Shown here: piece after piece, positions 7,634 to 51,312 of the stretch
Layout: each line of letters opens with the position of its first letter
How positions within the stretch are numbered: the stretch's first letter is position 1
Made by a program: the position numbers and the translations under genes
Assembly: GCA_041650615.1 (NCBI GenBank)
Contig: JBAZKU010000001.1
Location: 249,216 to 313,215 of the forward strand
Source of the DNA: Minisyncoccota bacterium
GTDB lineage: Bacteria; Patescibacteriota; Minisyncoccia; Phycocordibacterales; UBA9973
Reading direction: 5' to 3'
DNA length: 64,000 bases
The notes under the pieces: model-generated
What the model was told of the DNA's origin: nothing
Databases searched by the model: none
The model's input: only the letters and a program-made list of their open reading frames with translations

Positions 7634-8032
7634 CTAGTATTTAGAGGTAAAAGGATTCCTGTTTGAAAGACCTTTTAACATTTTTTTAACGCTAGAAGCT
7701 CCCCTTCTGAATAAAGTTTGCCTGCGGTCTTTGTTTTTCCTAATTTCATTAAAAAGACTTTCTTTTATTTCATCAATCGCTTGATATAAATCTTCTTTAT
7801 CGGAACTGGCATAAAATTCTTTTCCGCCTATTTTTATCAAGCAGTCTGAATGAAAAACAACGCCTGACTTGTGATGTTTGGTGCTTTTCCCAACTTCAAA
7901 ATTAACCATTGCTTCTCCTCCGCTTGCCTCCATTGAAGAAAGCAGTTTTTCCAGATTAGTGACCCTTTTTGAAACATAATCCTTGATAGCCTCTGTAAGC
8001 TCAAAATTTTTCCCTTGTAGATTTATTTTCAT
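7634..8032 (-). CDS. hpf: ribosome hibernation promoting factor / RaiA family
   Basis: MKINLQGKNFELTEAIKDYV...EVGKSTKHHKSGVVFHSD is a typical sigma-54 modulation / YfiA fold sequence. Confidence 0.8.
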   Translation of the reverse strand: MKINLQGKNFELTEAIKDYVSKRVTNLEKLLSSMEASGGEAMVNFEVGKSTKHHKSGVVFHSDCLIKIGGKEFYASSDKEDLYQAIDEIKESLFNEIRKNKDRRQTLFRRGASSVKKMLKGLSNRNPFTSKY

Positions 8033-8149
8033 CCCAGTACTAAAATTTTAATTAATAATCTTTATCTTTATGCCCCGTAATCAAAAATTTAGTACGGGAC
8101 AGGTATATTTATACTATCATAAAACATATTACATGAAGTATTGATTAAT

Positions 8150-10081
8150 TTAATATTTCATTCCATGAAAAAGGGCTTTTAAAATAACATCCAATTTCAT
8201 TGTCGCTACGCCTATAACTCTATCTCCTCCGCCGTAGTAAATATAAAGCAATTTATCTTTTACAACCATCCCGCAAGGGAATACCACATTATTAACAATT
8301 CCGCTTTTTTCATATTCTTCCACTGGTTCAAAAATCGGCTCGGTACTGCGCGCCAGCACTATGGCAGGATCTTTTGCGTCAAGCAAAACGCATCCCATAC
8401 GATAAGTATTATGACTTTTAGATACACCATGATAAAGCAATAGCCAGCCATATTTGGTTTTAATCGGCGGGGCGCAAATACCAACCTTAGAACTATCCCA
8501 AGTATTTGTTCTGGGTCCGATAATTCTTATGCATTTTTTTACCATTTCGTGCTTAAAATCCAGGGTTGATAAATAGTCGCCACAAACTTCATTACCTACG
8601 CGATGCAAAATAAAATAGCCCAAAGGAAATTTCTTGGGGAAGAGACAGGTGTCTTTATCATCAATCCCTTGCGGAGTAATGAGAAAAGGTTTTTCCCACT
8701 TCCAATTATGAGCAAGAAAATCTTTTTCCCCAATGGAAGAAATAGCTGCCCTCGGGGGACCAATACTGTCAAAAGCCGTATAACACATATAAATATTTTT
8801 ACCGATTCTAGTTAAACGGGGATCTTCACAACCTGAATTTTGATTATTGATTTTTTTATTTTCAAATTCCTCGCGCGGAACGTAAATAGGCGCAGATAAT
8901 CGTTCAATAATATCAATACCATTTTCCGTCATCGCATATCCCAAAACGGATGTATTATCCTGGGACATAGCGCGATATACTATGTGAATTTTCCCGTTTA
9001 GGGCAATAGAGGCTGGATTAAAAGTTGCTTTTTCTTCCCATTTATTTTCTGTTTTCGGAAGAATAATCGGATTTTGGGGAAAACGTTTGAAACTAAAATC
9101 GCTTTTGTATTTGAAATGTATACTGAAAATAAGGTCGTTTAAATTAACCCGAGCCAAACATACTGTCGTATCGGCTGCGCCGTAATATATGGTAAGCGTA
9201 TCTTTTTCAACCAAAGTTCCGGTTGGAAAAACTATATTTCCGACGTAGCCGGATAATTCGTAAAATTCTTCCGGCACAATAATAGGTCCGCCGGTCCGAC
9301 CTAATATTTTTTGAGAATCTGCTAAGTCAAATAAAACCGCTTCAATACCAAAGATCCTGTCAAGATTATTGGCTGAGGGAAAATAATTTTGAATATGGGA
9401 ATAAAGAAATAGCCAGCCATATTTGGTTTTAATTGGCGGGGCTCCGACTTCTATATGGTCATATGGCGAACGTTTTAAATCAATCATGCAACTATCCACA
9501 TTCTTTTCCCATTTTTCCCAAAATGACGGAGACCATAATTCTTCTATTCTATCCAGTTTGGCAATAACCACTTTAGCCGGAGGAGAATCGGTATGATATG
9601 AAAACATCACCACAATTTTTCCATTTATTCGTTCGGGAAACAGCGTCATGGCTTTGGCATTAAAGGGGGTGACCAAATGGCGCTCATCTATTTTTTTTAA
9701 ATCCTTGGAAAGAGCTACCGCTACTCTGATACCATCGGAGCTGAAAGGGTATTTGGAAAGCGCTGTATAAAAAGTGTAAAAAACACCCTCAAAATACGTT
9801 ATTCTAGGGTCTTCACAACCGAATTTTTCCCATTCTTCTTTGGGAATAATAAACGGCGCACGATCTTTGAAATGCACTCCATCTTTGCTTTTTCCTATGC
9901 CAATAGTTGAAATTTGGCTGGGATTTTGTAATTTATCCACCGCCGAAATAGCGCGATAAACTCCGTAAATATTTTTGCCGTATTTGATTGGGCAAAGATT
10001 AAAACTAGCAAATTTCTCCCAATAATGGTCTCCATCGGGAATTAATATCGGGTTGTACTCGGATTTTTTGACAACAAACAT
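8150..10081 (-). CDS. tandem two-domain GH130-family glycoside hydrolase/phosphorylase (beta-mannoside phosphorylase-like)
   Basis: Two repeats, each with 'GCEDPR' and 'APPIKTKYGWL(F/L)LY' motifs. Confidence 0.65.
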   Translation of the reverse strand: MFVVKKSEYNPILIPDGDHYWEKFASFNLCPIKYGKNIYGVYRAISAVDKLQNPSQISTIGIGKSKDGVHFKDRAPFIIPKEEWEKFGCEDPRITYFEGVFYTFYTALSKYPFSSDGIRVAVALSKDLKKIDERHLVTPFNAKAMTLFPERINGKIVVMFSYHTDSPPAKVVIAKLDRIEELWSPSFWEKWEKNVDSCMIDLKRSPYDHIEVGAPPIKTKYGWLFLYSHIQNYFPSANNLDRIFGIEAVLFDLADSQKILGRTGGPIIVPEEFYELSGYVGNIVFPTGTLVEKDTLTIYYGAADTTVCLARVNLNDLIFSIHFKYKSDFSFKRFPQNPIILPKTENKWEEKATFNPASIALNGKIHIVYRAMSQDNTSVLGYAMTENGIDIIERLSAPIYVPREEFENKKINNQNSGCEDPRLTRIGKNIYMCYTAFDSIGPPRAAISSIGEKDFLAHNWKWEKPFLITPQGIDDKDTCLFPKKFPLGYFILHRVGNEVCGDYLSTLDFKHEMVKKCIRIIGPRTNTWDSSKVGICAPPIKTKYGWLLLYHGVSKSHNTYRMGCVLLDAKDPAIVLARSTEPIFEPVEEYEKSGIVNNVVFPCGMVVKDKLLYIYYGGGDRVIGVATMKLDVILKALFHGMKY

Positions 10082-33792: not shown

Positions 33793-34773
33793 CTACGACT
33801 CGGGTTTCTTTTTTGATTTTTCTTGAATAATTCCTGCTATTGCTCTACGAAGGAGATTAAGATCCTCTTCTGCATCTTGAAGAATCATTACAATGGACTG
33901 CATTTCCTTGGTAGAACGTTCTTTAAAAATTCGTTCAACTTCTTGCTGTTTCATATCCAATATGGTTTCTGTATCAGTGCGAAGCCTATTAATTACTCTC
34001 ATAAGGATTTCATAATCTTTTGACGGCGACCTTCTATTTTTGGAGGTTCCCGCAAGTGATTCAGCTGTTCTGTTTGAACGGATATAATGGAGTGCTTTCC
34101 GTAACGGTAGTTTGTGTTCTATGATATAAGATGCTTTTTCTATCTGGGCTTCAGGAGTAAAATTAGAAAGTGCCACTCCTATTTGGAAAGATATTTTCCT
34201 CTCGTTCATAAAATCTTGCACCGTTTGGCAGAGACGCGTAAATCCGAGATATTGATATACCCAACTTTTTGAATGGGCGACTATTATTGCTACCTTTTCT
34301 ATGGCCGCACTATTCTCTATTTTCTCTTGTCGCATCAAGAAATCTCGAATATAGGCAAGAGCGAAAGTTATTTCAAGCGGTGTGTGAAGTTCACTTCCAA
34401 AGTTTGCTACAACTGAACAGATAAATTGTTCTTCTTTGGACTTTACATCCATCACATAAGCTAGAATAGTTGGTATATTACCAAGAAGACAAGAACGATA
34501 ACGGCGTTCTCCGTCTATCAATTCAAAACAATATTGTCCATCAATTATAGGACGCACCCATATAGGTCTCTTCTGTCCGACAGCTTTCATACTTTCCATG
34601 AGCGCTATTAAACCATCCTTGTTAAAATATTTTCTGGGTTGATCAGCAAAAGGACGGATAAGCCCTATGGGTATTTCGCATATTTTCGCTTCTGAAACAA
34701 CTACCTTAGATTTTAGATCTGAAATCGAATTTGTATGCAAAAGATCAAGCGCCACTTCCTGTTCAGGCTTCAT
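33793..34773 (-). CDS. ParB/Srx-like nuclease-domain protein
   Basis: ELIDGERRYRSC (GERRxR ParB box II). Confidence 0.5.
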   Translation of the reverse strand: MKPEQEVALDLLHTNSISDLKSKVVVSEAKICEIPIGLIRPFADQPRKYFNKDGLIALMESMKAVGQKRPIWVRPIIDGQYCFELIDGERRYRSCLLGNIPTILAYVMDVKSKEEQFICSVVANFGSELHTPLEITFALAYIRDFLMRQEKIENSAAIEKVAIIVAHSKSWVYQYLGFTRLCQTVQDFMNERKISFQIGVALSNFTPEAQIEKASYIIEHKLPLRKALHYIRSNRTAESLAGTSKNRRSPSKDYEILMRVINRLRTDTETILDMKQQEVERIFKERSTKEMQSIVMILQDAEEDLNLLRRAIAGIIQEKSKKKPES

Positions 34774-35278: not shown

Positions 35279-35643
35279 ATACTATTATTATAGAATAATA
35301 CCAGATATAACTCAAACTAACTGGCTCCGGGGGTAGGGATATCTCCCTCGACTAAAATTTTTTCGTCAAAAAATTTTGTCTGGGCACCGACTCATGGATT
35401 TTTACTGCTGTAAAAATCACATTCCGTCGTTCGATCACCTACACGCACGACAAGCAGTTGTCGTGCTCGCCCGGAAGCATGAAACAAAAAGCCCATACGA
35501 AAGTATGAGTTTTTGTTTTTGCTCCCCTTACTGGACAAGTTCAGAACTGCAAACTGGACTAGAATTAAAAGCGATTTAGAGTTTAGTGGGATATTAGGGC
35601 TATTCCCTAAACTTTTACTTCAGAACTAATAAATAAATTATAC

Positions 35644-36090
35644 TCAAGTTCCTCTTCTAATTTTATTAGTTTCGTAGTGATTTTCAGTTATAGCAACTAC
35701 ATATAAAATCCTTTTTGGCTCAATATCAAAATAAAAAATACGACCAGTGCTTTGTAAAAAGAGTTCTCTTATTTCAATACCTTCATCAATCTTACTATAA
35801 AGCTTTTTATAATCACCCGAGTTTTCTACACTTTCATTTCTTATATTATTTCTTTGAAAATCAGCTCGTGTGTAAACCTTGGTTCCAATTTCTCTTAAAA
35901 TAGAAAGAGCTTTATTCCCTTTATTTTTACCAAGTATGTCTATTTCACAACAATTTTTGTTGTATTTTGAGAAAGATATTAAATAAGGTTTAGTTTCAGG
36001 TTCTTCTGTCTCTTGGGATACTTCGGTCACTTTCTGAGGTATCTCATTATAACTCTCAACCTGTGTAACCTCATCAGGAATTTCTGGCAT
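35644..36090 (-). CDS. hypothetical protein; C-terminus resembles a RelE/ParE-fold toxin (putative toxin partner of the Panacea protein)
   Basis: C-terminal GRIFYFDIEPKRILYVVAITENHYE pattern; 5-bp gap from the upstream Panacea gene. Confidence 0.3.
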   Translation of the reverse strand: MPEIPDEVTQVESYNEIPQKVTEVSQETEEPETKPYLISFSKYNKNCCEIDILGKNKGNKALSILREIGTKVYTRADFQRNNIRNESVENSGDYKKLYSKIDEGIEIRELFLQSTGRIFYFDIEPKRILYVVAITENHYETNKIRRGT

Positions 36091-36095
36091 AAGAG

Positions 36096-36596
36096 TTATT
36101 TTTTAGCTATTTCTAGTTTTTGAGAATAAAAGCTTTTCATTGTTTTGGGAGAAATTTCATTTTCTGAATTTTTAGAACTCTCTAGTCCTTCTCTAGCTTC
36201 TTTCCACGGTGTCTCATTATGTGTAAGCATTTCTAAATAATCAGCATCTAATCCACCATACACAGACCAAATCTCATCTAAAAGCTTTTTAGCTTCAGTA
36301 GGGATTGTTTTTATTAAAGTTGCGTCCGCTTCTTTTTGTATATAATTAAATCCAAAATCTTTGTATTTAACATACAAACTTTTGATTGCTGGTCCGTGAA
36401 CCCACGCTTCAATTTTTTCATTGAAAAGTTTTTGATTATTAAACACCAAAAACCAAGCTTGTGCATAGTAGACAAGTTTCTGAAGCTTTTTATTAGTTAT
36501 TCCTTTCTTATCTTTATTAGCTTTATCTATAAAGTATTCTGCGACAGTCAAAGCACTTACTTTTTTAGTGACTAAACTCATAATTGTATTATACAC
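36096..36596 (-). CDS. Panacea-domain (DUF4065, SocA-like) putative antitoxin
   Basis: KLQKLVYYAQAWFLVFNNQKLFNEKIEAWVHGP is characteristic of DUF4065. Confidence 0.5.
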   Translation of the reverse strand: MYNTIMSLVTKKVSALTVAEYFIDKANKDKKGITNKKLQKLVYYAQAWFLVFNNQKLFNEKIEAWVHGPAIKSLYVKYKDFGFNYIQKEADATLIKTIPTEAKKLLDEIWSVYGGLDADYLEMLTHNETPWKEAREGLESSKNSENEISPKTMKSFYSQKLEIAKK

Positions 36597-36661
36597 TTTT
36601 CTACTTAAATTTACAAAGAGGTGTTGATAAGTATTGTAAACTAAAGTAAACTATATAATAT

Positions 36662-38311
36662 ATGGCTTTTGAATTAGATACAGAAAATAAGAGCAAAAAT
36701 TATTTAGATGAAAAAGAGCTTTTTATTCTATATTATTTATCAAAAAATAAACACATTTCAACACAAGGAAGTAATGTCTTTAGACCTAATGAAAAAACTA
36801 TTTACCATAAACCTGACGGTCTTAATGACGTAGCTGAACTAGAAAAAAATCTTAATAAACATATATTGGAAGCTGAAGAAAAAAGAGAAAAAAAATTACA
36901 ATCTTCAATTGTAGCTAATTATTTAATTGGATTAGGTAGAACTTTTGATGAAAAAAGTTTTGCTGTCTTCGGAGATGCTGATTATAGTTTGGTTGAAGGC
37001 GGATTTTTGACAGATGATTTTCATAAGGAAATGTATGATTATTTAGCTTTATCAAAAGAAAAAAGAGAAAAAGATAAAAAATTAAACAAAGAACAAAAGA
37101 TATTTCTTGAGAATATAATTTCTAAAAAATTAGACCTCAATGACATAGAAACAAGGGTTAGATTTACTAAATTAGCTAACCCACCTATTAAATCTTATCA
37201 GGAAGCTATATTAAATAAAAAAGCAGAAAAAGAATTTATTGAGTTAGTAAATAAGTTAATCAAAGAACACGATGGCGGTAAATGGAATACCGAAGATGTT
37301 GAAAAATTTTTAGAGATATATTACAAGCACAACAAAGAACAATTTAAGAAAAATGTTACTACTCCAAGAACGTGGCTTTTTGAAGACAACCAAACCAAAC
37401 TTGCCAATCTTATTTTTGCACATACTGATTTTCATTTATTTATAAAAGATAATACAAAATTAAATAATTACTTAAAAGAATATATAAAACTTTTCAAAAA
37501 AGATGAGCTTGATAAATTAAGTAATAAAGGTCTAACTGGAAGCTTTTTTACAACAAGTAGATTGATACCTCTAAATAATCAACTTTGGGGCTTTGAAAAA
37601 CAAAAGGAAATTTTAGTACAACATATTGAAAAAAACTTTAATGAGTATAAAAAAAGTAGCTTACAAATAAGCCATCCATATTTTGAACCTGTTTATGAAG
37701 GCGATACAGAAGAAGGAATAACAGAGATTACTATATCTCCTAAAAATGAAGATGAGGCAGACCGATTTTTATTTGTGCATACAATAATAGCTCTTGAATA
37801 TAAGAAATTTCTTGAGATTAAAAGTTTATTTTATGGATATATGGATTTGTTTGATTTATATGACAGAGGTTTTGTATTTCAAATTAAATTACCTAAAGAA
37901 GTAAATAATAAAGATGAAGAAATAACAGAAATTTCAAAACCAGTTAAAAAATCAAACATTAAACCTTTCTTGGTAACAAAAAACAAAAAGGGTTATCTAA
38001 AGTTTGCAAAAAATAGCCCCAATATATTTATTGGGAGTATAACAACTCGGAAATTTAGACTACTACAAGCACTTATGGAGCCAATAGAAACCATTGGTAC
38101 AGCCAGAAAAATAGACAAAGTTTTTGAAGCAATTAAATTACCAAGAGATAACAATGACCCAAAACTAAAGGATAATTACCTTAGTCGTGACAGGAAGCTG
38201 TCAATTATTCAATACACAATAAAAGAAATACAAAAGATAAAAAAACTACAAAGAAAAATACACTTTTCGTTTGGTGAAAATAACCAAATAATCTGGGCAG
38301 ATTTTACTTAA
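36662..38311 (+). CDS. large hypothetical protein (549 aa), island cargo
   Basis: No recognisable motif; Lys/Glu-rich. Confidence 0.35.
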   Translation: MAFELDTENKSKNYLDEKELFILYYLSKNKHISTQGSNVFRPNEKTIYHKPDGLNDVAELEKNLNKHILEAEEKREKKLQSSIVANYLIGLGRTFDEKSFAVFGDADYSLVEGGFLTDDFHKEMYDYLALSKEKREKDKKLNKEQKIFLENIISKKLDLNDIETRVRFTKLANPPIKSYQEAILNKKAEKEFIELVNKLIKEHDGGKWNTEDVEKFLEIYYKHNKEQFKKNVTTPRTWLFEDNQTKLANLIFAHTDFHLFIKDNTKLNNYLKEYIKLFKKDELDKLSNKGLTGSFFTTSRLIPLNNQLWGFEKQKEILVQHIEKNFNEYKKSSLQISHPYFEPVYEGDTEEGITEITISPKNEDEADRFLFVHTIIALEYKKFLEIKSLFYGYMDLFDLYDRGFVFQIKLPKEVNNKDEEITEISKPVKKSNIKPFLVTKNKKGYLKFAKNSPNIFIGSITTRKFRLLQALMEPIETIGTARKIDKVFEAIKLPRDNNDPKLKDNYLSRDRKLSIIQYTIKEIQKIKKLQRKIHFSFGENNQIIWADFT

Positions 38312-38628
38312 TTTCCTTGATGCCTAGAGGGAAAAATTAAAATGGCTTTTGATATGCACAGAGGGATATTATAAACCCTCTTATTTTTTTTATTTATAAA
38401 TAATAAATAAAAACAAAAAACCCTCTCGTCCCCTCTAGCTGATTTTTGCTTAGAGGGTTCTTCATAATGCTTTTATGCAGGATAAGAAAGAAACAAAAAA
38501 AGAATTAAATCCAAAACTATTGGATTTATCGCCTGAAGATAGTCGTGATTTAGGTAGTTTCTTTACCTTGCTTATAAAAATAGATAAGCGAGTAAATCCT
38601 GCAAATTATCAACTTAATAAAAAAGAAT

Positions 38629-39747
38629 ATGATTGATACAGTCCGTCTCTTAATACCAAAAGAGAAAATGAGTTTCTTGTCTAGTGTGTCAAATTGGGAA
38701 CTTTATTCAAAAACAGAACAATACTCTAAATTTGTTCGCAATCCAAGTAAGGCAGAAAAAGAAACTGGAAATTACTTTCCTAGATTAACAGGATATAAGA
38801 GAAAGTATTCAATGGATGCAAATGTAATACTTGAGTTCTCTGTGCCTAAGCTACTATATCTAAATAATCTTGATGAACTAACAGACAAAAATTTTAATAT
38901 GGTCATAGAAGCTCTACAAGATAGATTAAAAGATATGGGAGTATTACTGACAAAATATGTCATAGAAAACGCCTCAGTTAGCTCGGTTCATTTCTCCAAA
39001 AATATACTTCTCAAAGATGGATATACAGCAACACATATTATATCCGAATTAGGAAAAATAGATTTAAGAAAAAGTTTTGATTTTGCAAAAACTAGATTTC
39101 TAAATGACGGACAGAGTATCTATGCTCACACAAACGCACACGAACTTGTTATTTACGACAAGGTTGCTGACTTAAAGAAAGATAAAAAACGAGCAATAGA
39201 TAAAGACCAAACCCTATATCAAAGAAGTTTGTTTGCTGAATTAAATAAAGATAAAGAATTAAAGGAAATTCTTCGCATTGAAATTCGTCTAAATCAAAAA
39301 CAGAAAATGAATAAAATCTTGGAAAATTTAGGATATGAAAAAAATCCGAAATTTAAGGATGTGTTTAATTCAGAGATGAGTAAGAAAGTAGTAAATGAGT
39401 ATTGGAAGAAATTGATATTAGACAGAAACTCTGGACTGTTTTCAATCAATCTTAGTATTAAAGATACACTGCAAGTTATGTTTTTAACGGATAAAAAATT
39501 AAAACCAAACAAAGCAGTTTATTTATTAGGACTGTATATACTTGCTAAAGATGAAAACGGTATTAGACAATTAAGAAGTATTGTTGAAAAACGAGTACAC
39601 GAACGAACTTGGTATCGTATGGCAAAAGAATTAAGATACGCAAACGAGATTATAACCAAAAATAACCTTAGAGATTGGGTTAAACAAATCAATAAAACCC
39701 TTGACGACTTCAAGCCATATAGGCATAAAGAGTTGTTCACTGATTAA
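38629..39747 (+). CDS. hypothetical protein (372 aa), island cargo; possibly a replication-initiator-like protein
   Basis: No firm motif; the replication-initiator guess is weak. Confidence 0.3.
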   Translation: MIDTVRLLIPKEKMSFLSSVSNWELYSKTEQYSKFVRNPSKAEKETGNYFPRLTGYKRKYSMDANVILEFSVPKLLYLNNLDELTDKNFNMVIEALQDRLKDMGVLLTKYVIENASVSSVHFSKNILLKDGYTATHIISELGKIDLRKSFDFAKTRFLNDGQSIYAHTNAHELVIYDKVADLKKDKKRAIDKDQTLYQRSLFAELNKDKELKEILRIEIRLNQKQKMNKILENLGYEKNPKFKDVFNSEMSKKVVNEYWKKLILDRNSGLFSINLSIKDTLQVMFLTDKKLKPNKAVYLLGLYILAKDENGIRQLRSIVEKRVHERTWYRMAKELRYANEIITKNNLRDWVKQINKTLDDFKPYRHKELFTD

Positions 39748-39785
39748 AAGTTGCTATGTAAAGTATTGTCAAGTATAATATAAAT

Positions 39786-39998
39786 ATGAAATATAAAATA
39801 TGTTCACAAAAATTAAGAGACGGAAGATGGAAACCTGCATATTTACCTCCTATCAAACAGGTTGGAACAGAAAGTTTGGAATTTTCTGAACCTACAGAAA
39901 TTGATAAACATTTTCAAACTAAAGAAGATGCCGATAGTTGTGCATTATTACACTTAACCAAAAAAGGAATTAAAAATGAAGAAATTGAATACAATTAA
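39786..39998 (+). CDS. small hypothetical protein
   Basis: 70-aa ORF. Confidence 0.25.
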   Translation: MKYKICSQKLRDGRWKPAYLPPIKQVGTESLEFSEPTEIDKHFQTKEDADSCALLHLTKKGIKNEEIEYN

Positions 39999-40164
39999 AG
40001 AATTTTATAAAGCTGAAGATTTAGCAGAAAAATTAGATGTAAACATTATGACTATTTATCGCTATATCAAAGCTGGCAAATTAAAAGCGTACAAAATTGG
40101 TCGGGAGTATAGAATTGATAAGGTTGAATTTAATGCTTTTCTTAAAAAAGTAAGCACAAGATAG
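39976..40164 (+). CDS. excisionase-family HTH DNA-binding protein (candidate recombination directionality factor)
   Basis: IMTIYRYIKAGKLKAYKIGREYRI matches MerR/Xis-type HTH_17. Confidence 0.55.
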   Translation: MKKLNTIKEFYKAEDLAEKLDVNIMTIYRYIKAGKLKAYKIGREYRIDKVEFNAFLKKVSTR

Positions 40165-40167
40165 GTT

Positions 40168-42162
40168 ATGAATACACTTACAAACTCAATTGAATACTTA
40201 GATATAAATGAAACAGTTTCAATACTAGGAGTGTCTTCAGCAACAATAAGAAATTGGATTAAATATAATTACATAACACCAAAAGAAACACCAAACAAGA
40301 AACTGGTATTTCATTCCAACCAAATCAGAGAGCTTAAAGAAAGAATTGCTTCAGGAGAAGTAAATCGTTTGAACAAAAGAGCTAACAAAAAGAACTCGTG
40401 CAACACTTTTATACCTGATGAATATGCAGATAATCAAGAAGTAATAAAACTAGTTCAGGAAATCCTAGAAAATCATAAAATAAACAAACTACAGATAGAT
40501 AAAGTATTACTAGTCCTAGCAATAAACCTACTAAAAAATAATAACCTCGTTAATTATAAAAAGTTATCTAATCTAGCAGAATTAGATTACAAGAACGAAA
40601 TAATTAAGAACGAAATAAATTGGTGGTTAGAAAAAATAGAAGATAAAACAATAGATAAAAATTATGCAGAATTATTGAGTATTACTATCCCTAAAATAAC
40701 AGATATTCTAGGGTTAGTTTATCAATCCCTATCAACAGAAGGAAGTAAGGCAGAAGGCGGTTCATATTACACACCAAAAAAAGTGGTTGATGAAATTATT
40801 GATAATTATGTAGAAAAAAATCACACAGTATTAGACCCTTGTTGCGGTACAGGACAATTTATACTTTCAATTGCAAGAAAAGTAAAAGACCCAACTAAAA
40901 TATGGGGTTTTGATATTGATGAAAAAGCTGTAAGATTAGCCAGATTAAATTTAATACTTCATTTTTCTAATGTTGATTTTGAGCCACATATTTATCATAA
41001 AAACACCTTAACTGAAATAAACTCTTCTGGTCTATTTTCAGAAAACAATATACCAATGTTTGATGTAATTGCTACTAATCCGCCTTGGGGTGTACATTTT
41101 TCAAAAAGTGAAACTTATGAATTACAAAATCTATTTCCTGTAATTAAATCAGGAGAAGCATTCTCTTACTTCATATATAAAGGTCTTGAACTGCTAAAAG
41201 AAAATGGTATCCTATCCTTCATACTTCCAGAGTCAATACTTAATATAAAAACACACAGAGATATTCGTGAAGTACTTGTAAATAAGACAACAGTAAAAAA
41301 AGTAAAATACCTAAATCGTGTATTTAAGAATGTATTTACTCCAGTAATCAGACTTGATGTTATAAATAAAAAACCTCATTTCACAAATAAAATTAAAGCA
41401 GAAAAAGATGGTTCTACATACGAAATTGAACAAACGAGAATACAGAACAACCCTGACCGTATTCTTAATGTTTTTACAGATACAGCAGATATATCCCTGT
41501 TTGATAAAACTTATGAAATACCACATACAACACTAAAAGATAAGGCAGAATGGGCTCTAGGGGTTGTTACGGGTGATAACAAAAAACATTTATCAGACAA
41601 AAAAACAAAAACGAATGAACCAATTTTGACAGGAAAAGACATTAAGAAGTTTACCGCAATTTCAGCTTCAAACTTTATTGAGTTTAATCCTGATAATTTT
41701 CAACAAGTTGCTCCTGAATACAAATATCGTGCTAAAGAAAAATTGATTTATAAGTTTATATCAAAGGAACTTGTTTTCTCCTATGATGACAAACAAACGC
41801 TAACATTAAACAGTGCAAATATACTTATACCCAAAGTTGATAACTATCCTATAAAAACCATTTTAGCATTATTCAATTCTTCTTTATATCAATTACTTTA
41901 TCAAAAAAAGTTTGGGGCAATTAAAATACTGAAAGGAGATATTGAACAACTACCACTTCCAATAATAGACAAAGGAAAGCACAAAGACATTGAAAGAATT
42001 GTAAACAAACTGCTAGATAATACAAAACCTACCGAAAATAGAAAAAGAGTTTATCTGGAATTAGATGATTATATAATGAATTTGTTTAGTTTGAAGAAAG
42101 AAGAAAAAGATTATATAAGAAAATCAATTAAAGTGTCGGACAAATTATTAAATAATATATAA
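40168..42162 (+). CDS. N6-adenine DNA methyltransferase (gamma class, Eco57I/TaqI-like) with N-terminal HTH
   Basis: Motif I VLDPCCGTGQF, motif IV NPPWG; N-terminal ATIRNWIKYN HTH; C-terminal target-recognition region. Confidence 0.7.
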   Translation: MNTLTNSIEYLDINETVSILGVSSATIRNWIKYNYITPKETPNKKLVFHSNQIRELKERIASGEVNRLNKRANKKNSCNTFIPDEYADNQEVIKLVQEILENHKINKLQIDKVLLVLAINLLKNNNLVNYKKLSNLAELDYKNEIIKNEINWWLEKIEDKTIDKNYAELLSITIPKITDILGLVYQSLSTEGSKAEGGSYYTPKKVVDEIIDNYVEKNHTVLDPCCGTGQFILSIARKVKDPTKIWGFDIDEKAVRLARLNLILHFSNVDFEPHIYHKNTLTEINSSGLFSENNIPMFDVIATNPPWGVHFSKSETYELQNLFPVIKSGEAFSYFIYKGLELLKENGILSFILPESILNIKTHRDIREVLVNKTTVKKVKYLNRVFKNVFTPVIRLDVINKKPHFTNKIKAEKDGSTYEIEQTRIQNNPDRILNVFTDTADISLFDKTYEIPHTTLKDKAEWALGVVTGDNKKHLSDKKTKTNEPILTGKDIKKFTAISASNFIEFNPDNFQQVAPEYKYRAKEKLIYKFISKELVFSYDDKQTLTLNSANILIPKVDNYPIKTILALFNSSLYQLLYQKKFGAIKILKGDIEQLPLPIIDKGKHKDIERIVNKLLDNTKPTENRKRVYLELDDYIMNLFSLKKEEKDYIRKSIKVSDKLLNNI

Positions 42163-42167
42163 AACTT

Positions 42168-42905
42168 ATGGAATACTTAAAAGAAAAATTAAATAAACTT
42201 ATTGATGAACTTTCATCAGACAAAAGAGATATAATAAGGTCTCGTTTATCTGATTTGGTTTCTGTTTATCCTTTTAATGAATATGAATATATAATTTCAT
42301 CCTTAATGGGTTTTGGAAAAATAACACTAGATGATTACTATGAGATTAGAGACGACTATGTATCTCGCAATATGTATCTATATATCTTTGAGATAGCTTC
42401 CCCAAGAGGATTTGGAGAATTATGGGCACAAGGTCATATTAAAGAATTAGAACCTGATTTTATAAAACCTACTAAAAAGGTGGATGAAAATTATAGCGGA
42501 CAATATGATTTAGCTTTACCAATAGAAAATAAATTTATCACAATAGAAGTTAAAGCATCTAGGGCTGTTGATGGTGGTAGTTCTGAACCATTGTTTGTTA
42601 AAGCCCTTTCTTATGAATGCAAGAGCCCTTTTTGGATGAACTTTCAACAAATTAAACCAGCTTGTGCTGATGTGTTTTTATGGGTTGCTGTTTGGAGAGA
42701 TGTTATAAAATACTGGGTTCTATCTTCAGATGAAGTTAAAAACAATAAATACTATTCAAAAGGTCAACATCGTGGAAATAATGGTGAAGGTCAGTTGCAT
42801 ATAAAAGAAGATAATATAAATGAGTTCAAAAAATATGAGGTTAAATCTAATAAACTTAAAGAAGCAGTAATAGATGCTTACAAAAGACAAAAAGGGATAA
42901 AATAA
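42168..42905 (+). CDS. hypothetical protein, candidate PD-(D/E)xK restriction endonuclease partner of the methyltransferase
   Basis: ...YDLALPIENKFITIEVKAS... fits D-x(n)-ExK; 5-bp gap after the methyltransferase gene. Confidence 0.3.
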   Translation: MEYLKEKLNKLIDELSSDKRDIIRSRLSDLVSVYPFNEYEYIISSLMGFGKITLDDYYEIRDDYVSRNMYLYIFEIASPRGFGELWAQGHIKELEPDFIKPTKKVDENYSGQYDLALPIENKFITIEVKASRAVDGGSSEPLFVKALSYECKSPFWMNFQQIKPACADVFLWVAVWRDVIKYWVLSSDEVKNNKYYSKGQHRGNNGEGQLHIKEDNINEFKKYEVKSNKLKEAVIDAYKRQKGIK

Positions 42906-42908
42906 ATT

Positions 42909-44426
42909 ATGAAAGCAATAATCGTAGCAAGAGTATCAACAGACGAACAAAAAGAGAACTCCCCAAGTGCTCAACTATTCAGAATGCAACATTATTGTGA
43001 AAATCGTGATTTTATAATTTCTAAAGAATTTAGTTTTATAGAAAGTGCTTACAAAATAAAAAGAGATGAATTTGATAACATCATTGAGTTTATTGAGGAT
43101 TGTATAAAGAGAAAAGAAAAAATAGCTGTATGTTTTGATAAAGTAGATAGATTATCAAGAAACATTTTTGATAAAAGAGTGGCTTGGTTATATGAAAAAG
43201 CAATCAATAATGAAATTGAACTTCATTTCGTATCAGATAGCCAAGTCATTAACGATAAGATGAATGCAGGCGATAAATTTGCTTTTGGAATGAAACTAGG
43301 GCTTTCTAAATACTATTCTGATGCTATTAGTGATAATGTAAAACGTGCCTTTGAGCAAAAACGAAGAAATGGCGAATGGACAGGTGCAGTTCGCTTGGGC
43401 TATCTTAATGTACCTGCTGATATAGAAAAACGATTGAGAAAAGACATAATCATAGACCCTGAACGGGGATATTTAATAACTAAAATGTTTGAAATGTATG
43501 CAACTGGTAATTATTCACTAGAAACTATAAGAAAAGAAATTACTGATTTAGGATTACGAAGTTTGAAAGAATTTAAGTTGTCAAAAAGTTGCGTAGAAAA
43601 TATACTAAAAGACCCATTTTATTGTGGAATAGCAACTTCAAAGAAATATGAGCAAACTTGGGTACATAAATATCCTCGTTTAATAACTCAAGAACTATTT
43701 GAGAGATGTAAAGAAATCAGAGAAGGTAAAAATAAAAAACGCTCTAAATTTGTTTCAAAAGAATTTATATTCAAAGGACTTCTTACCTGTAAAAATTGTG
43801 GTTGTATGTTAAGCCCTGAAATACATAAAAAGAAAAGTGGTTTGACCTATGTTTACTATTCCTGCACTAATTCTAAAGGTATATGTAAACGCCAGTATGT
43901 ACCTGAAACAGCCCTTCTTAAGCCAATTTACAAGGTTTTAGACCAGTTTGAAGGTATTACAGAAGAAGCCCAGAATACTATCGTTAAAGAGCTTAGGGAA
44001 ACTACAGAAGCAGAGGTCACCTTTCATAAAGCCCAAGTAAATCGTATTAGAGCAGAATACGACCAGTTAAAAAAGAAAGATGATAGGTTGCTTGAAATGT
44101 ACCTTGAAGAAGATAAGAGTATTACTAAGGACATCTATGACAAAAAACATCAAGAGTATCACGACAAGATACAACTTTTGGAAATTGAATTATCAGAACA
44201 TACAAATGCCGATTATGACTATCAAACCACTGTGGCTACAGTACTTTCTGTCGCTCGCAGAGTAAAGGAAATCTTTGAAAGTTCTGAACCATACGAAAAA
44301 AGAGCAATTTTGAATTATTTACTTCAGAACCCTGTTGTAAATGAGAAAAAGCTAGAGTTTACAATACGTTCTCCATTTAATTTAGTGCTTGAACTAGCTA
44401 CTAGTCCTAACTGGCTCCGGGGGTAG
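42909..44426 (+). CDS. large serine recombinase (integrase)
   Basis: N-terminal resolvase domain IIVARVSTDEQ (catalytic Ser), recombinase domain, Zn-ribbon CKNCGC...CTNSKGIC, coiled-coil; the 3' end overlaps the tRNA-Asn 3' end. Confidence 0.8.
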   Translation: MKAIIVARVSTDEQKENSPSAQLFRMQHYCENRDFIISKEFSFIESAYKIKRDEFDNIIEFIEDCIKRKEKIAVCFDKVDRLSRNIFDKRVAWLYEKAINNEIELHFVSDSQVINDKMNAGDKFAFGMKLGLSKYYSDAISDNVKRAFEQKRRNGEWTGAVRLGYLNVPADIEKRLRKDIIIDPERGYLITKMFEMYATGNYSLETIRKEITDLGLRSLKEFKLSKSCVENILKDPFYCGIATSKKYEQTWVHKYPRLITQELFERCKEIREGKNKKRSKFVSKEFIFKGLLTCKNCGCMLSPEIHKKKSGLTYVYYSCTNSKGICKRQYVPETALLKPIYKVLDQFEGITEEAQNTIVKELRETTEAEVTFHKAQVNRIRAEYDQLKKKDDRLLEMYLEEDKSITKDIYDKKHQEYHDKIQLLEIELSEHTNADYDYQTTVATVLSVARRVKEIFESSEPYEKRAILNYLLQNPVVNEKKLEFTIRSPFNLVLELATSPNWLRG

Positions 44427-44486
44427 GGATCGAACCTACGACCAATCGCTTAACAGGCGACCGCTCTACCGCTGAGCTACCCCGGA
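44412..44486 (-). tRNA. tRNA-Asn (GTT), CCA encoded
   Basis: Manual fold: acceptor TCCGGGG/CCCCGGA, D arm GCTC-AGCGGTA-GAGC, anticodon loop CTGTTAA, T arm GTAGG-TTCGATC-CCTAC. Confidence 0.8.
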
Positions 44487-44728
44487 ATATTTACTATTTT
44501 GTTTTTTATAAACTTTCTTCCCGCACAACTTTTAAAATACTTTTCTCTTTTTCTTGCATCGCTTATATTTGCTAATTCTTCTGTATAAATTATACTCCAC
44601 GGCATATATTGTTTTGTATAATAACTTAACCCTGAATTGTGTTCCAATAAACGACGTTTCAAATTTGTTGTACTACCAACGTATAATTTTGGATATTTTA
44701 AGCTTTTTAATATATAAACATAAGCCAT
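44477..44728 (-). CDS. small GIY-YIG nuclease-superfamily protein
   Basis: YVYILKSLKYPKLYVGSTTNLKRRLLEHN; its stop codon lies within the tRNA-Asn 5' end. Confidence 0.7.
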   Translation of the reverse strand: MAYVYILKSLKYPKLYVGSTTNLKRRLLEHNSGLSYYTKQYMPWSIIYTEELANISDARKREKYFKSCAGRKFIKNKIVNIPG

Positions 44729-50868: not shown

Positions 50869-50945
50869 TGGTGGACCCTACAGGACTCGAACCTGCCACC
50901 TCCTCATTGCAAATGAGGCGCTCTAGCCAGATGAGCTAAGGGCCC
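50869..50945 (-). tRNA. tRNA-Ala (TGC), CCA encoded
   Basis: Manual fold: GGGCCCT acceptor with G3:U70, anticodon loop TTTGCAA, T loop TTCGAGT. Confidence 0.8.
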
Positions 50946-51043
50946 AATATTTATACAGACCTTATTCTATCTTATTTTTCTAATAATGCAAATTTAGCCA
51001 ATAATATTTGTATTTTTTTATGTTTCAGTTATTATTTTTATAA

Positions 51044-51114
51044 GGGCCTGTAGTATAGTAGTAACACGCGTCCATGGCATGGACGAATCGGGGGTGCGAT
51101 TCCCCCCAGGTCCA
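51044..51114 (+). tRNA. tRNA-Ala (GGC), atypical D and T loops
   Basis: GGGCCTG acceptor with G3:U70, anticodon loop ATGGCAT; D loop AGTAGTA lacks the G18G19 pair, T loop TGCGATT has G at position 55, and the D stem has one mismatch. Confidence 0.55.
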
Positions 51115-51198
51115 CATTAAAGGGCCTATATCAAAATCCGATATAGACCCTGCGTTCGGACGAAATGAAATTTTCATATTTCATTTCGCTCCTCACTT

Positions 51199-51269
51199 GG
51201 GCCTATAGTAAAGTGGTATTACGCGGCATTCGCATTGCCGAGGCGCGAGTTCGATTCTCGCTAGGTCCA
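51199..51269 (+). tRNA. tRNA-Ala (CGC)
   Basis: GGGCCTA acceptor with G3:U70, D arm GTAA-AGTGGTA-TTAC, anticodon loop TTCGCAT, T loop TTCGATT. Confidence 0.75.
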
Positions 51270-51312
51270 CATTAGACGATTTCTAACTTTATCTAAAATT
51301 GACCACCAAAAC

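Follow-up and report, generated by a model that had tools for sequence, protein, structure and literature searches.

Two large open reading frames of a Minisyncoccota genomic island are probably the replication and control genes of an 8.9-kb integrative element

What is the role of two large open reading frames (ORFs) without recognizable domains at the core of a genomic island of a Minisyncoccota bacterium? Both lie within a stretch of 64,000 nucleotides (contig JBAZKU010000001.1), which is called the window in the following, and are referred to as ORF549 and ORF372 according to their length in amino acids (aa). An earlier note on this DNA had taken them for cargo of a defence island and possibly for a novel system. 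We arrive at a different answer, to which we assign a probability of about 0.7, namely that both ORFs constitute the replication and control module of an 8.9-kb integrative element, with ORF372 as replication gene (rep) and ORF549 as DNA-binding regulator.

36662..38311, plus strand: ORF549, the "slot" protein, 549 aa, ATG start
38629..39747, plus strand: ORF372, predicted rolling-circle initiator (G2P/Phage_CRI-Rep_trans superfamily), 372 aa, ATG start

Both reading frames are present exactly as originally described and both are real genes. ORF372 has at least 918 homologues at about 70% identity in several classes of the Candidate Phyla Radiation (CPR), and ORF549 has about 70 homologues. 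It was also correct that no known domain can be placed in the window proteins: neither has a match in Pfam, PADLOC, PHROGs or NCBIfam (for ORF372 with E <= 0.01 in the case of Pfam and PADLOC).

Are the two genes cargo at all? A scan of one genome per species yielded 216 genomes with a relative of ORF372, nearly all of them from the CPR, and 80 loci (designated by L and a number) were analysed. Of all backbone genes of the element, ORF372 is conserved best and occurs in 80/80 loci. A gene for an HTH_17 protein follows directly on its 3' side in 75 of the 80 loci (58-87% identity), and a large serine recombinase lies 3' of it in 73, with a gap of 0 to approximately 7 kb between the HTH_17 gene and the recombinase. 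Clustering of the ORFs across the loci resulted in the consensus order slot gene, 53-aa ORF (29 loci), ORF372, HTH_17, cargo and recombinase. The true cargo is located in two variable regions, the left arm, which holds a toxin-antitoxin (TA) pair in the window, and the interval between HTH_17 gene and recombinase, which holds a restriction-modification (R-M) pair there. Both regions contain zero to several genes of known defence types; in the interval these are mostly DNA methyltransferases of three classes (about 36 loci), next to ResIII restriction enzymes. The classification of the ORFs as cargo cannot be maintained, since ORF372 belongs to the conserved backbone and the cargo resides in two other regions.

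The nature of the backbone gene ORF372 can be deduced from its family rather than from the window protein itself. Two parts of the gene are of special interest:

38629-39330, plus strand: catalytic domain of ORF372 (aa 1-234); the C-terminal half of the protein is helical
39154-39156, plus strand: codon of the candidate catalytic Tyr176, aligned with Tyr197 of gpII

An exhaustive profile search delivered 1,082 cluster representatives of the ORF372 family (at 50% identity), nearly all from CPR genomes. The family PF05144 (Phage_CRI), which is the N-terminal domain of the filamentous-phage replication protein G2P, is matched by 26 of 111 diverse family members (best E 1.8e-10), and PF02486 (Rep_trans) by seven of the 111 (best E 1.2e-07). 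In individually scanned members the Phage_CRI matches cover residues 1-234, and the Pfam gathering score is exceeded in 2/10. Only seven residues are invariant across the 111 family sequences, among them Y176, K178 and E218. The segment 'LVIY176DK' aligns with 'LVAY197LK' of M13 gpII in both hhalign and hmmsearch, and in the same two independent alignments 'LRIEIR' (R216/E218/R220) is placed opposite to 'VRFEAR' of gpII. Tyr-197 of gpII is the residue that is covalently linked to the nicked strand (PMC5405960). At the level of sequence profiles, the membership of ORF372 is established transitively through its family, and the loose resemblance of the 372-aa protein to replication initiators, mentioned in the earlier note as a weak impression, is now supported.

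Some observations nevertheless weigh against this assignment. The link to the G2P (Phage_CRI)/Rep_trans superfamily is a transitive one, which runs via family members and not directly via the window protein with its missing database matches. The score of the family hidden Markov model against M13 gpII is weak and is reached by 11 of 3000 shuffles (empirical p about 0.004), so that the homology of ORF372 rests on the Pfam bridge. Foldseek found no match for the ORF372 model (pLDDT, the predicted local distance difference test, 81) in the PDB; solved Rep_trans structures (RepD/RepDE) are presumably contained there and none of them was returned. An origin or nick site for ORF372 could not be identified computationally. 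Among the further searches, phmmer gave no match between M13 gpII and 270 members of the ORF372 family. Sequence-profile searches of the PDB with the profiles A1, A2, A4 and A5, the last of which represents the C-terminal module of ORF549, revealed nothing significant.

That ORF549 and ORF372 form a novel two-gene anti-phage system, carried as cargo, is suggested by their location between the TA and the R-M pair on a recombinase-bearing island and by the lack of a direct domain match. However, ORF372 is homologous to rolling-circle initiators of phages and plasmids and present at all loci, and a relative of ORF549 occupies the slot in only 8 of the 80 ORF372 loci. Relatives of ORF549 were found 5' of an ORF372 homologue (L166, L169, L171, L173, L174 and L175), but also 5' of a Prim-Pol/PriCT/AAA_25 primase-helicase (L168 and L170), of an AAA_25 helicase (L172) and of an unrelated gene (L167). 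Since ORF549 relatives are scarce at ORF372 loci and occur together with other replication genes, the pairing fails in both directions, and the two genes do not always co-occur. PADLOC moreover assigned no family to either protein at E <= 0.01 and matched only the methyltransferase, the restriction endonuclease and the small HTH_17 gene (mad1). A defence system of this kind is therefore extremely unlikely. The expectation of an undescribed function holds insofar as ORF549 represents an undescribed family; the defence role is refuted by what the earlier note itself had named as decisive, homology to replication proteins and no conserved pairing.

Could the element instead be an integrated inovirus-like prophage or a phage satellite? 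In Pfam, the ORF372 family matches Phage_CRI best, small ORFs are located beside rep and the integration occurs at a tRNA gene, which would all fit to such an origin. In contrast, neither the window element nor the recurrent clusters of the 80 loci include a morphogenesis (pI/Zot-like) ATPase or a coat-like protein, and the small proteins ORF53 and ORF70 are hydrophilic. Among 2.9 million IMG/VR viral contigs and 50,697 phage records there was no relative of ORF372, and the phage and plasmid collections searched contained relatives of neither ORF372 nor ORF549. Since viral relatives and linked morphogenesis genes are both missing, we consider a prophage or satellite very unlikely.

Which function can then be attributed to ORF549, the second gene of the proposed replication and control module? 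The features that are important for this question are the following:

ORF549, aa 1-300: family-specific module
ORF549, aa 301-412: beta-rich module
ORF549, aa 425-549: C-terminal module, predicted to recognise DNA
36622..36656, plus strand: conserved non-coding block immediately 5' of ORF549, presumed promoter/ribosome-binding site of the slot gene
38326-38457: array of six AGAGGG/CCCTCT sites, 6/14 AGAGGG sites of the 64-kb window within 132 bp
38421-38457: composite site CCCTCT-N4-CCCTCT-N15-AGAGGG, about 20 bp upstream of the ORF53 start
38475..38636, plus strand: ORF53, micro-protein called by gene finders, homologues at the same position in 29 loci and in L166

In every locus one co-oriented gene of 215-520 aa ends 200-300 bp upstream of ORF372. 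The proteins encoded in this slot are mosaics: the type of aa 1-300 of ORF549 is present in 2/75 slot genes, that of aa 301-412 in 9/75 and that of aa 425-549 in 6/75. The block in front of ORF549 is 94-100% identical over 17-35 bp in L004, L008, L026 and L037, and in L008 it lies about 57 bp from the left-end block of the element (see below). The exact 549-aa protein is on record in several assemblies. With about 70 clusters, all at E <= 1e-121, its family is a small one with sharp limits. Searching again with the ORF549 profile added no relatives, and scanning the 67 family members against Pfam gave noise only. The invariant residues are mostly aromatic or Gly, and no nuclease, ATPase or NTP-binding motif is found among them. 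The structural model (pLDDT 78) is confident for residues 1-410 and of low confidence for the C-terminal module. It has no fold match in the PDB or BFVD according to Foldseek, and this includes the N-terminal approximately 410 residues, for which no relative was detected either. ORF549 is an undescribed protein family.

A further observation concerning ORF549 is the array of six hexamers in the 164-bp gap between its gene and ORF53, which the earlier note had overlooked together with ORF53 itself and the tRNA-Asn gene at 44412-44486. At least three copies of the hexamer are present 5' of ORF372 in all seven loci with an ORF549-type C-terminal module, whereas none of the other 69 loci reaches two (7/7 vs 0/69, Fisher p = 4.6e-10). 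Six of the seven loci exhibit the exact composite architecture about 20 bp before the ORF53 start, plus one hexamer just past the stop codon of the slot gene. The Reps of the array-bearing loci are only 45-68% identical to the Rep of the window, which means that the array tracks the C-terminus of the slot protein and not the Rep lineage. The composite site was also present out of sample in 3/3 further members with the same C-terminal type and in 0/2 with another type. Altogether, it occurs in 11 of 175 loci and is absent from the loci with other C-terminal types and from 80 unrelated control loci. Co-variation of the protein module and the DNA site is thereby demonstrated.

An origin-binding site of Rep itself was also considered as identity of the array and rejected, since the array follows the C-terminal type of ORF549 and occurs in L172, which possesses an AAA_25 helicase and no G2P-like Rep. 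The slot proteins of L168 and L170, which have a different C-terminus, are accompanied by three GCTTAA repeats after the gene with an exact period of 10 bp.

We conclude from the co-variation that ORF549 is probably the sequence-specific DNA-binding protein of the element. Its C-terminal module would most likely control, i.e. repress or activate, the operon of ORF53, rep, HTH gene, cargo and recombinase. The pattern of this module (beta-beta/helix/helix/long-helix/beta-beta) is reminiscent of OmpR-type winged helices, and one family member with another C-terminal type has a Trans_reg_C match with an E of 0.036. Since the module lacks a profile match and its model is of low confidence, the winged-helix fold is a conjecture only, and the likeness to OmpR/PhoB is limited to the secondary-structure pattern and the 10-bp spacing of repeats.

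There are also points that speak against a regulatory DNA-binding role. The binding itself is read from the co-variation only, and the profile of the C-terminal module (A5) has no significant match in the PDB or Pfam. The other classes of slot proteins are not accompanied by an equally clear repeat array; sites of the form X-N4-X-N15-rc(X) built from other words do not exceed the control rate in their loci. No sigma-70-like promoter was found to overlap the array, although that consensus may not fit CPR promoters. Finally, the array could serve replication rather than transcription.

The last point leads to the possibility that ORF549 is an origin-binding replication protein, i.e. an iteron-type initiator or accessory protein which loads or assists the downstream replication enzyme, with the AGAGGG sites flanking a pure A/T stretch of about 40 bp as unwinding element. 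In line with this, the ORF549 relatives are always situated directly 5' of a replication gene (G2P-like Rep, Prim-Pol/AAA_25 primase-helicase or AAA_25 helicase), and the sites are arranged at helical periodicity on either side of the A/T-only stretch 38382-38420. The region also folds better than shuffles as single-stranded DNA (z = -2.5), and there are insignificant singleton matches to Rep3 WH2 (E 0.057) and to the pi initiator (E 3.7). However, significant structural or profile matches are absent, and the A/T stretch is weak evidence because the whole genome is AT-rich. With its location about 20 bp ahead of the operon's first start codon, the array lies where an operator typically does, and as a rule G2P/Rep_trans initiators, like primase-helicases, recognise their origins themselves. 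We therefore regard an origin-binding function as rather unlikely.

It is also conceivable that ORF549 is variable hotspot cargo, for instance a defence, anti-defence or host-interaction effector, whose DNA-binding module serves autoregulation only. No other protein-coding position of the backbone varies as much as the slot, whose modules are shuffled in a mosaic manner, a pattern known from defence hotspots of mobile elements as well; moreover, the N-terminal part of about 410 residues has neither a relative nor a fold match, and the element family otherwise specialises in the carriage of R-M systems. This is opposed by the constancy of the slot, which always holds exactly one co-oriented gene at its fixed distance before rep, whereas the true cargo regions vary from zero to several genes. 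Neither a PADLOC match nor a nuclease, ATPase or NTP-binding motif points to an effector, and the predicted binding sites are located at the downstream operon and not at the promoter of ORF549 itself. Taken together, cargo of this kind is improbable, and a regulator of the downstream operon remains our preferred explanation for ORF549.

The third part of the answer concerns the element in which both genes are embedded. Its ends are defined by the following features:

35485..35520, minus strand: orphaned terminator hairpin and T-run of tRNA-Asn, host DNA, parted from the tRNA by the insertion
35521..35525, plus strand: attL crossover core GCTCC, direct repeat of the tRNA-Asn 3' end, with an identical copy at 44414-44418
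35526..35626, plus strand: conserved left-end block (CCTTACTGGACAAGTTCAGAAC ... ACTTCAGAAC), a two-part motif, presumed recombinase-binding arm of attL
42909..44426, plus strand: large serine recombinase (integrase; Resolvase 1.2e-17, Recombinase 3.1e-14, Zn_ribbon_recom 6.5e-07)
44412-44486, minus strand: tRNA-Asn(GTT), the integration target (ARAGORN; Rfam tRNA 70.2 bits)

The element comprises positions 35521-44418 (8,893 bp) and is inserted at the 3' end of tRNA-Asn. Its guanine-cytosine (GC) content of 0.293 is lower than that of the flanks (approximately 0.35), and the stretch from 36 to 44 kb accordingly falls below the remainder of the window. The left junction reads TTTTT-GCTCC-CCTTACTGGACAAGTTCAGAAC and the right junction CCTAACTG-GCTCC-GGGGG(tRNA); since the same GCTCC is found at both junctions, with the two copies 8,893 bp apart, it is the repeated crossover core. 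At the right end, the last 15 nt of the recombinase ORF also belong to the 3' end of the tRNA, which contains the attR core. The reverse complement of the orphaned hairpin reads CTCATAC-TTTC-GTATGGG followed by CTTTTT, and both an equivalent hairpin and (T)GCTCC are present at the left junctions of L008, L004, L022 and L034. Within the left-end block, 56 bp (35531-35586) share 96% identity with a stretch that closely precedes the slot gene in L008, a locus whose recombinase is 85% identical to that of the window; the copies in L034, L004 and L022 are weaker (83-92% identity). The two-part motif occurs in 23/81 loci, once per locus and always 5' of ORF372. Between 1.2 and 7.7 kb separate it from ORF372, and this variation marks the left arm as a second region for cargo. 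The block is presumed to be bound by the recombinase and possibly has other cis functions as well.

Other loci of the family provide further evidence on these ends. Of 69 testable recombinase 3' ends, 43 are abutted by a minus-strand tRNA (Asn-GTT in 35 cases, Gln in 7 and Asp in 1), and many of the recombinase ends without such a tRNA belong to internal members of tandem arrays. Beside a tRNA-Gln gene, L045 contains a perfect (100%) tandem duplication of a complete element of 6,446 bp (L045 6772-19658), whose unit begins with a set of minus-strand genes preceding the slot gene, closes with the recombinase stop and thus defines the ends of the element. The duplication may have arisen by genuine tandem integration, or a circular or replicating form may have been misassembled. 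Differing elements of the family lie in tandem at one site in L027, L035, L036, L046, L059, L166 and L174; the recombinase of one element is located immediately 5' of the left arm of the next, which indicates accretion at the tRNA target. The boundaries and the gene order are demonstrated by these observations, the fixed order being left end, optional minus-strand cargo, slot gene, micro-ORF, rep, HTH_17, cargo, serine recombinase and tRNA. On the opposite side of the balance, no excised circle was observed, and a search for the empty integration site in metagenomes via relatives of the flanking znuB found none, because synteny past the znu operon is not conserved.

The remaining genes of the element are either small backbone proteins or cargo:

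35644..36090, minus strand: 148-aa partner of the antitoxin, putative toxin, left-arm cargo (no family match; element-like GC of 0.304)
36096..36596, minus strand: SocA/Panacea-domain antitoxin, left-arm cargo (PF13274 1.9e-19, NF047745 1.1e-19)
39786..39998, plus strand: ORF70, small protein at a variable position between rep and the HTH gene (no family match)
39976..40164, plus strand: HTH_17 (excisionase/AlpA-like) backbone protein (PF12728 1.2e-13)
40168-42162 and 42168-42905, plus strand: type II R-M pair, cargo, methyltransferase (PADLOC MTase_II 2.2e-122) and restriction endonuclease (REase_II 1.4e-72)

The neighbourhood of TA-like pair, R-M-like pair and recombinase described in the earlier note is hence confirmed by these domain matches. 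The TA genes have an element-like GC content and are inserted between the left-end block and the promoter block of ORF549; the same pair is found at the same place in L004 and L026. The stop codon of ORF53 overlaps the start of ORF372 (ATGA), which suggests translational coupling. The micro-protein is characterized by the motif R-[DN]-L-V-x-F-F-x-L-L-x-K-x-D-K-R-x-N-P; elements whose replication gene encodes a primase-helicase have unrelated small ORFs in its place. At the position of ORF70, other loci likewise have unrelated small ORFs (clusters 9 and 24). The HTH_17 protein is a candidate for a recombination directionality factor or a regulator. The PADLOC matches to mad1/mad2 of the MADS system at the methyltransferase and the small HTH_17 gene (mad1) are far weaker than MTase_II and are probably generic.

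The methyltransferase has an N-terminal HTH_17 domain of its own (residues 10-58), similar to the separate backbone protein encoded just 5' of it. A homologous pair of methyltransferase and restriction endonuclease (48% and 67% identity) is encoded in L093 (14455-17143), about 4 kb from a znuB orthologue that is 85% identical; neither a recombinase nor a tRNA was detected between this R-M pair and znuB, and L093 may be a decayed or a different carrier of the same R-M system. In the left arm of L166, beside the ORF549 homologue, a Peptidase_M78 (ImmA/IrrE-like) gene is located (7958-8904, minus strand) together with a small adjacent gene. Such a combination is a classical anti-repressor/repressor module of mobile elements.

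Some features of the surroundings also deserve mention. The genes hpf (Ribosomal_S30AE), fmt and def recur past the tRNA-Asn in 8-16 loci (including L010, L018, L023, L028, L035, L044, L063 and L082), which indicates that the host surroundings of the target tRNA are conserved in many CPR genomes; the window copy of the element has a different neighbourhood with znuABC. In at least three loci, which belong to differing lineages, the tRNA/recombinase end has a small GIY-YIG gene directly next to it (window 44477-44728, minus strand; L057 14500-14730; L167 17410-17670). Just outside the left end, the window contains a ParB-like gene (ParB_N and HTH_ParB; 33793-34773, minus strand; GC 0.38) without an adjacent parA. 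The ParB-like gene and a DUF7670 gene show a host-like GC content and lie outside the element. Three tRNA-Ala genes with the anticodons TGC, GGC and CGC, one of them on the opposite strand, lie at 50869-51270 of the window.

How would such an element work? The serine recombinase would excise and integrate it at the 3' end of tRNA-Asn, with the HTH_17 protein possibly setting the directionality. The attP junction of the excised circle would read ...CCTAACTG-GCTCC-CCTTACTGG... (likewise ...CTAGTCCTAACTG-GCTCC-CCTTACTGGACAAG...), and in the empty attB the tRNA-Asn would be directly followed by its terminator. On the circle, ORF372 would nick one strand at an origin, become covalently attached via Tyr176 and prime rolling-circle replication. 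This would maintain or amplify the excised form, as described for the Rep_trans proteins of ICEBs1 and Tn916 (PMC5357655, PMC5704250). ORF372 may also process DNA for transfer, i.e. act as a relaxase. The swappable C-terminal module of ORF549 would recognise the CCCTCT-N4-CCCTCT-N15-AGAGGG array between its own gene and the operon, and the large variable N-terminal part would serve as sensor or effector domain.

Among known systems, the IMEs (integrative and mobilizable elements) and ICEs (integrative and conjugative elements) of Firmicutes that use 'relaxases' of the rolling-circle replication (RCR) initiator type (MobT/Rep_trans, PHA00330; streptococcal IMEs, NicK of ICEBs1, Orf20 of Tn916) are the closest kind. 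Like these IMEs, the CPR element is small, has its own recombinase, a site-specific housekeeping target and a protein of an RCR-initiator family as the only DNA-processing enzyme, and it shares with them an excisionase-like HTH gene, TA and R-M cargo and the tandem accretion at the target (PMC5357655, PMC5704250). An own integration and excision module with att sites, as is required for an IME, is represented by the recombinase, the GCTCC cores, the left-end block, the tRNA abutting in 43/69 cases and the duplication in L045. The superfamily of ORF372 includes the MobT relaxases (PMC5357655). In streptococci, RCR-type relaxases were found only together with tyrosine integrases (PMC5357655). 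The integrase of the CPR element, in contrast, is a large serine recombinase, which acts at a tRNA 3' end, a target commoner for tyrosine integrases. Further differences to the Firmicutes IMEs are that the Rep is nearer to Phage_CRI than to Rep_trans, that no TcpA/FtsK-like coupling protein is present and that the host belongs to the CPR.

Compared with gpII (G2P, PF05144) of M13/f1, ORF372 has the same 'MID...' N-terminal start and a catalytic domain of about 230 residues with the Tyr (Y176 vs Y197), a Lys two residues further on and an RxExR motif about 40-50 residues downstream. However, the similarity is at the detection limit, the C-terminal half of ORF372 is a different helical domain, and neither evidence for an internal restart of the gene-X type nor phage morphogenesis genes were found. 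With the initiators of the pT181 family (RepC/RepD, PF02486 Rep_trans) ORF372 would share the superfamily logic and the Tyr nucleophile, in agreement with the 7/111 family matches, and RepC presumably contains a motif similar to 'I-Y-[DN]-K'. The differences are that the Rep_trans matches are fewer and weaker than those to Phage_CRI, that Foldseek against the PDB gave no match and that the element is integrated and not a plasmid. ORF549 can be compared to the master repressors of satellites and ICEs (Stl of SaPI, ImmR of ICEBs1) and to OmpR/PhoB regulators, as it is predicted to be a diversified modular DNA-binding protein with sites near the promoter of a replication and excision operon and with direct repeats one helical turn apart. 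Yet no homology in sequence or fold was detected, and ORF549 is much larger and co-oriented with the operon instead of divergent, so that this comparison is to be understood as an analogy of logic and not as membership in one of these groups.

The element family is widespread in the CPR/Patescibacteria and apparently undescribed; no description was found in the searchable literature, the coverage of which is incomplete, so that one may exist elsewhere. CPR bacteria possess a near-ubiquitous chromosomal type IV secretion system (T4SS) of the MPF_FATA type, which is currently believed to play no conjugative part any more because relaxases are lacking, and 'very different relaxases yet to be found' have been postulated for Patescibacteria (PMC12102498). 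It is tempting, if rather doubtful, to regard ORF372 as this missing relaxase, a CPR-specific, Phage_CRI-like branch of the MobT/Rep_trans superfamily that would mobilise the elements via the T4SS. As parts of the same tentative picture, the identity of about 70% between ORF372 homologues across CPR classes might reflect recent transfer between these classes, and the N-terminal 410 residues or so of ORF549 might represent a new fold for signal sensing.

If our interpretation is correct, a false lead is removed, since the two genes would not be defence genes, and an abundant CPR-specific family of mobile elements is defined to the base pair. Much of the R-M traffic among CPR genomes would then ride on one element backbone. 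The serine integrase, the tRNA-Asn attB, the attP arms, rep and the candidate operator and regulator would provide parts for integration and shuttle vectors, which would be valuable in a phylum that is very hard to manipulate genetically. ORF549 would offer a clean and testable case of a protein module co-evolving with its DNA site. Moreover, with ORF372 there would be a concrete candidate for the relaxase that the CPR type IV secretion system is missing, and this question would become directly testable.

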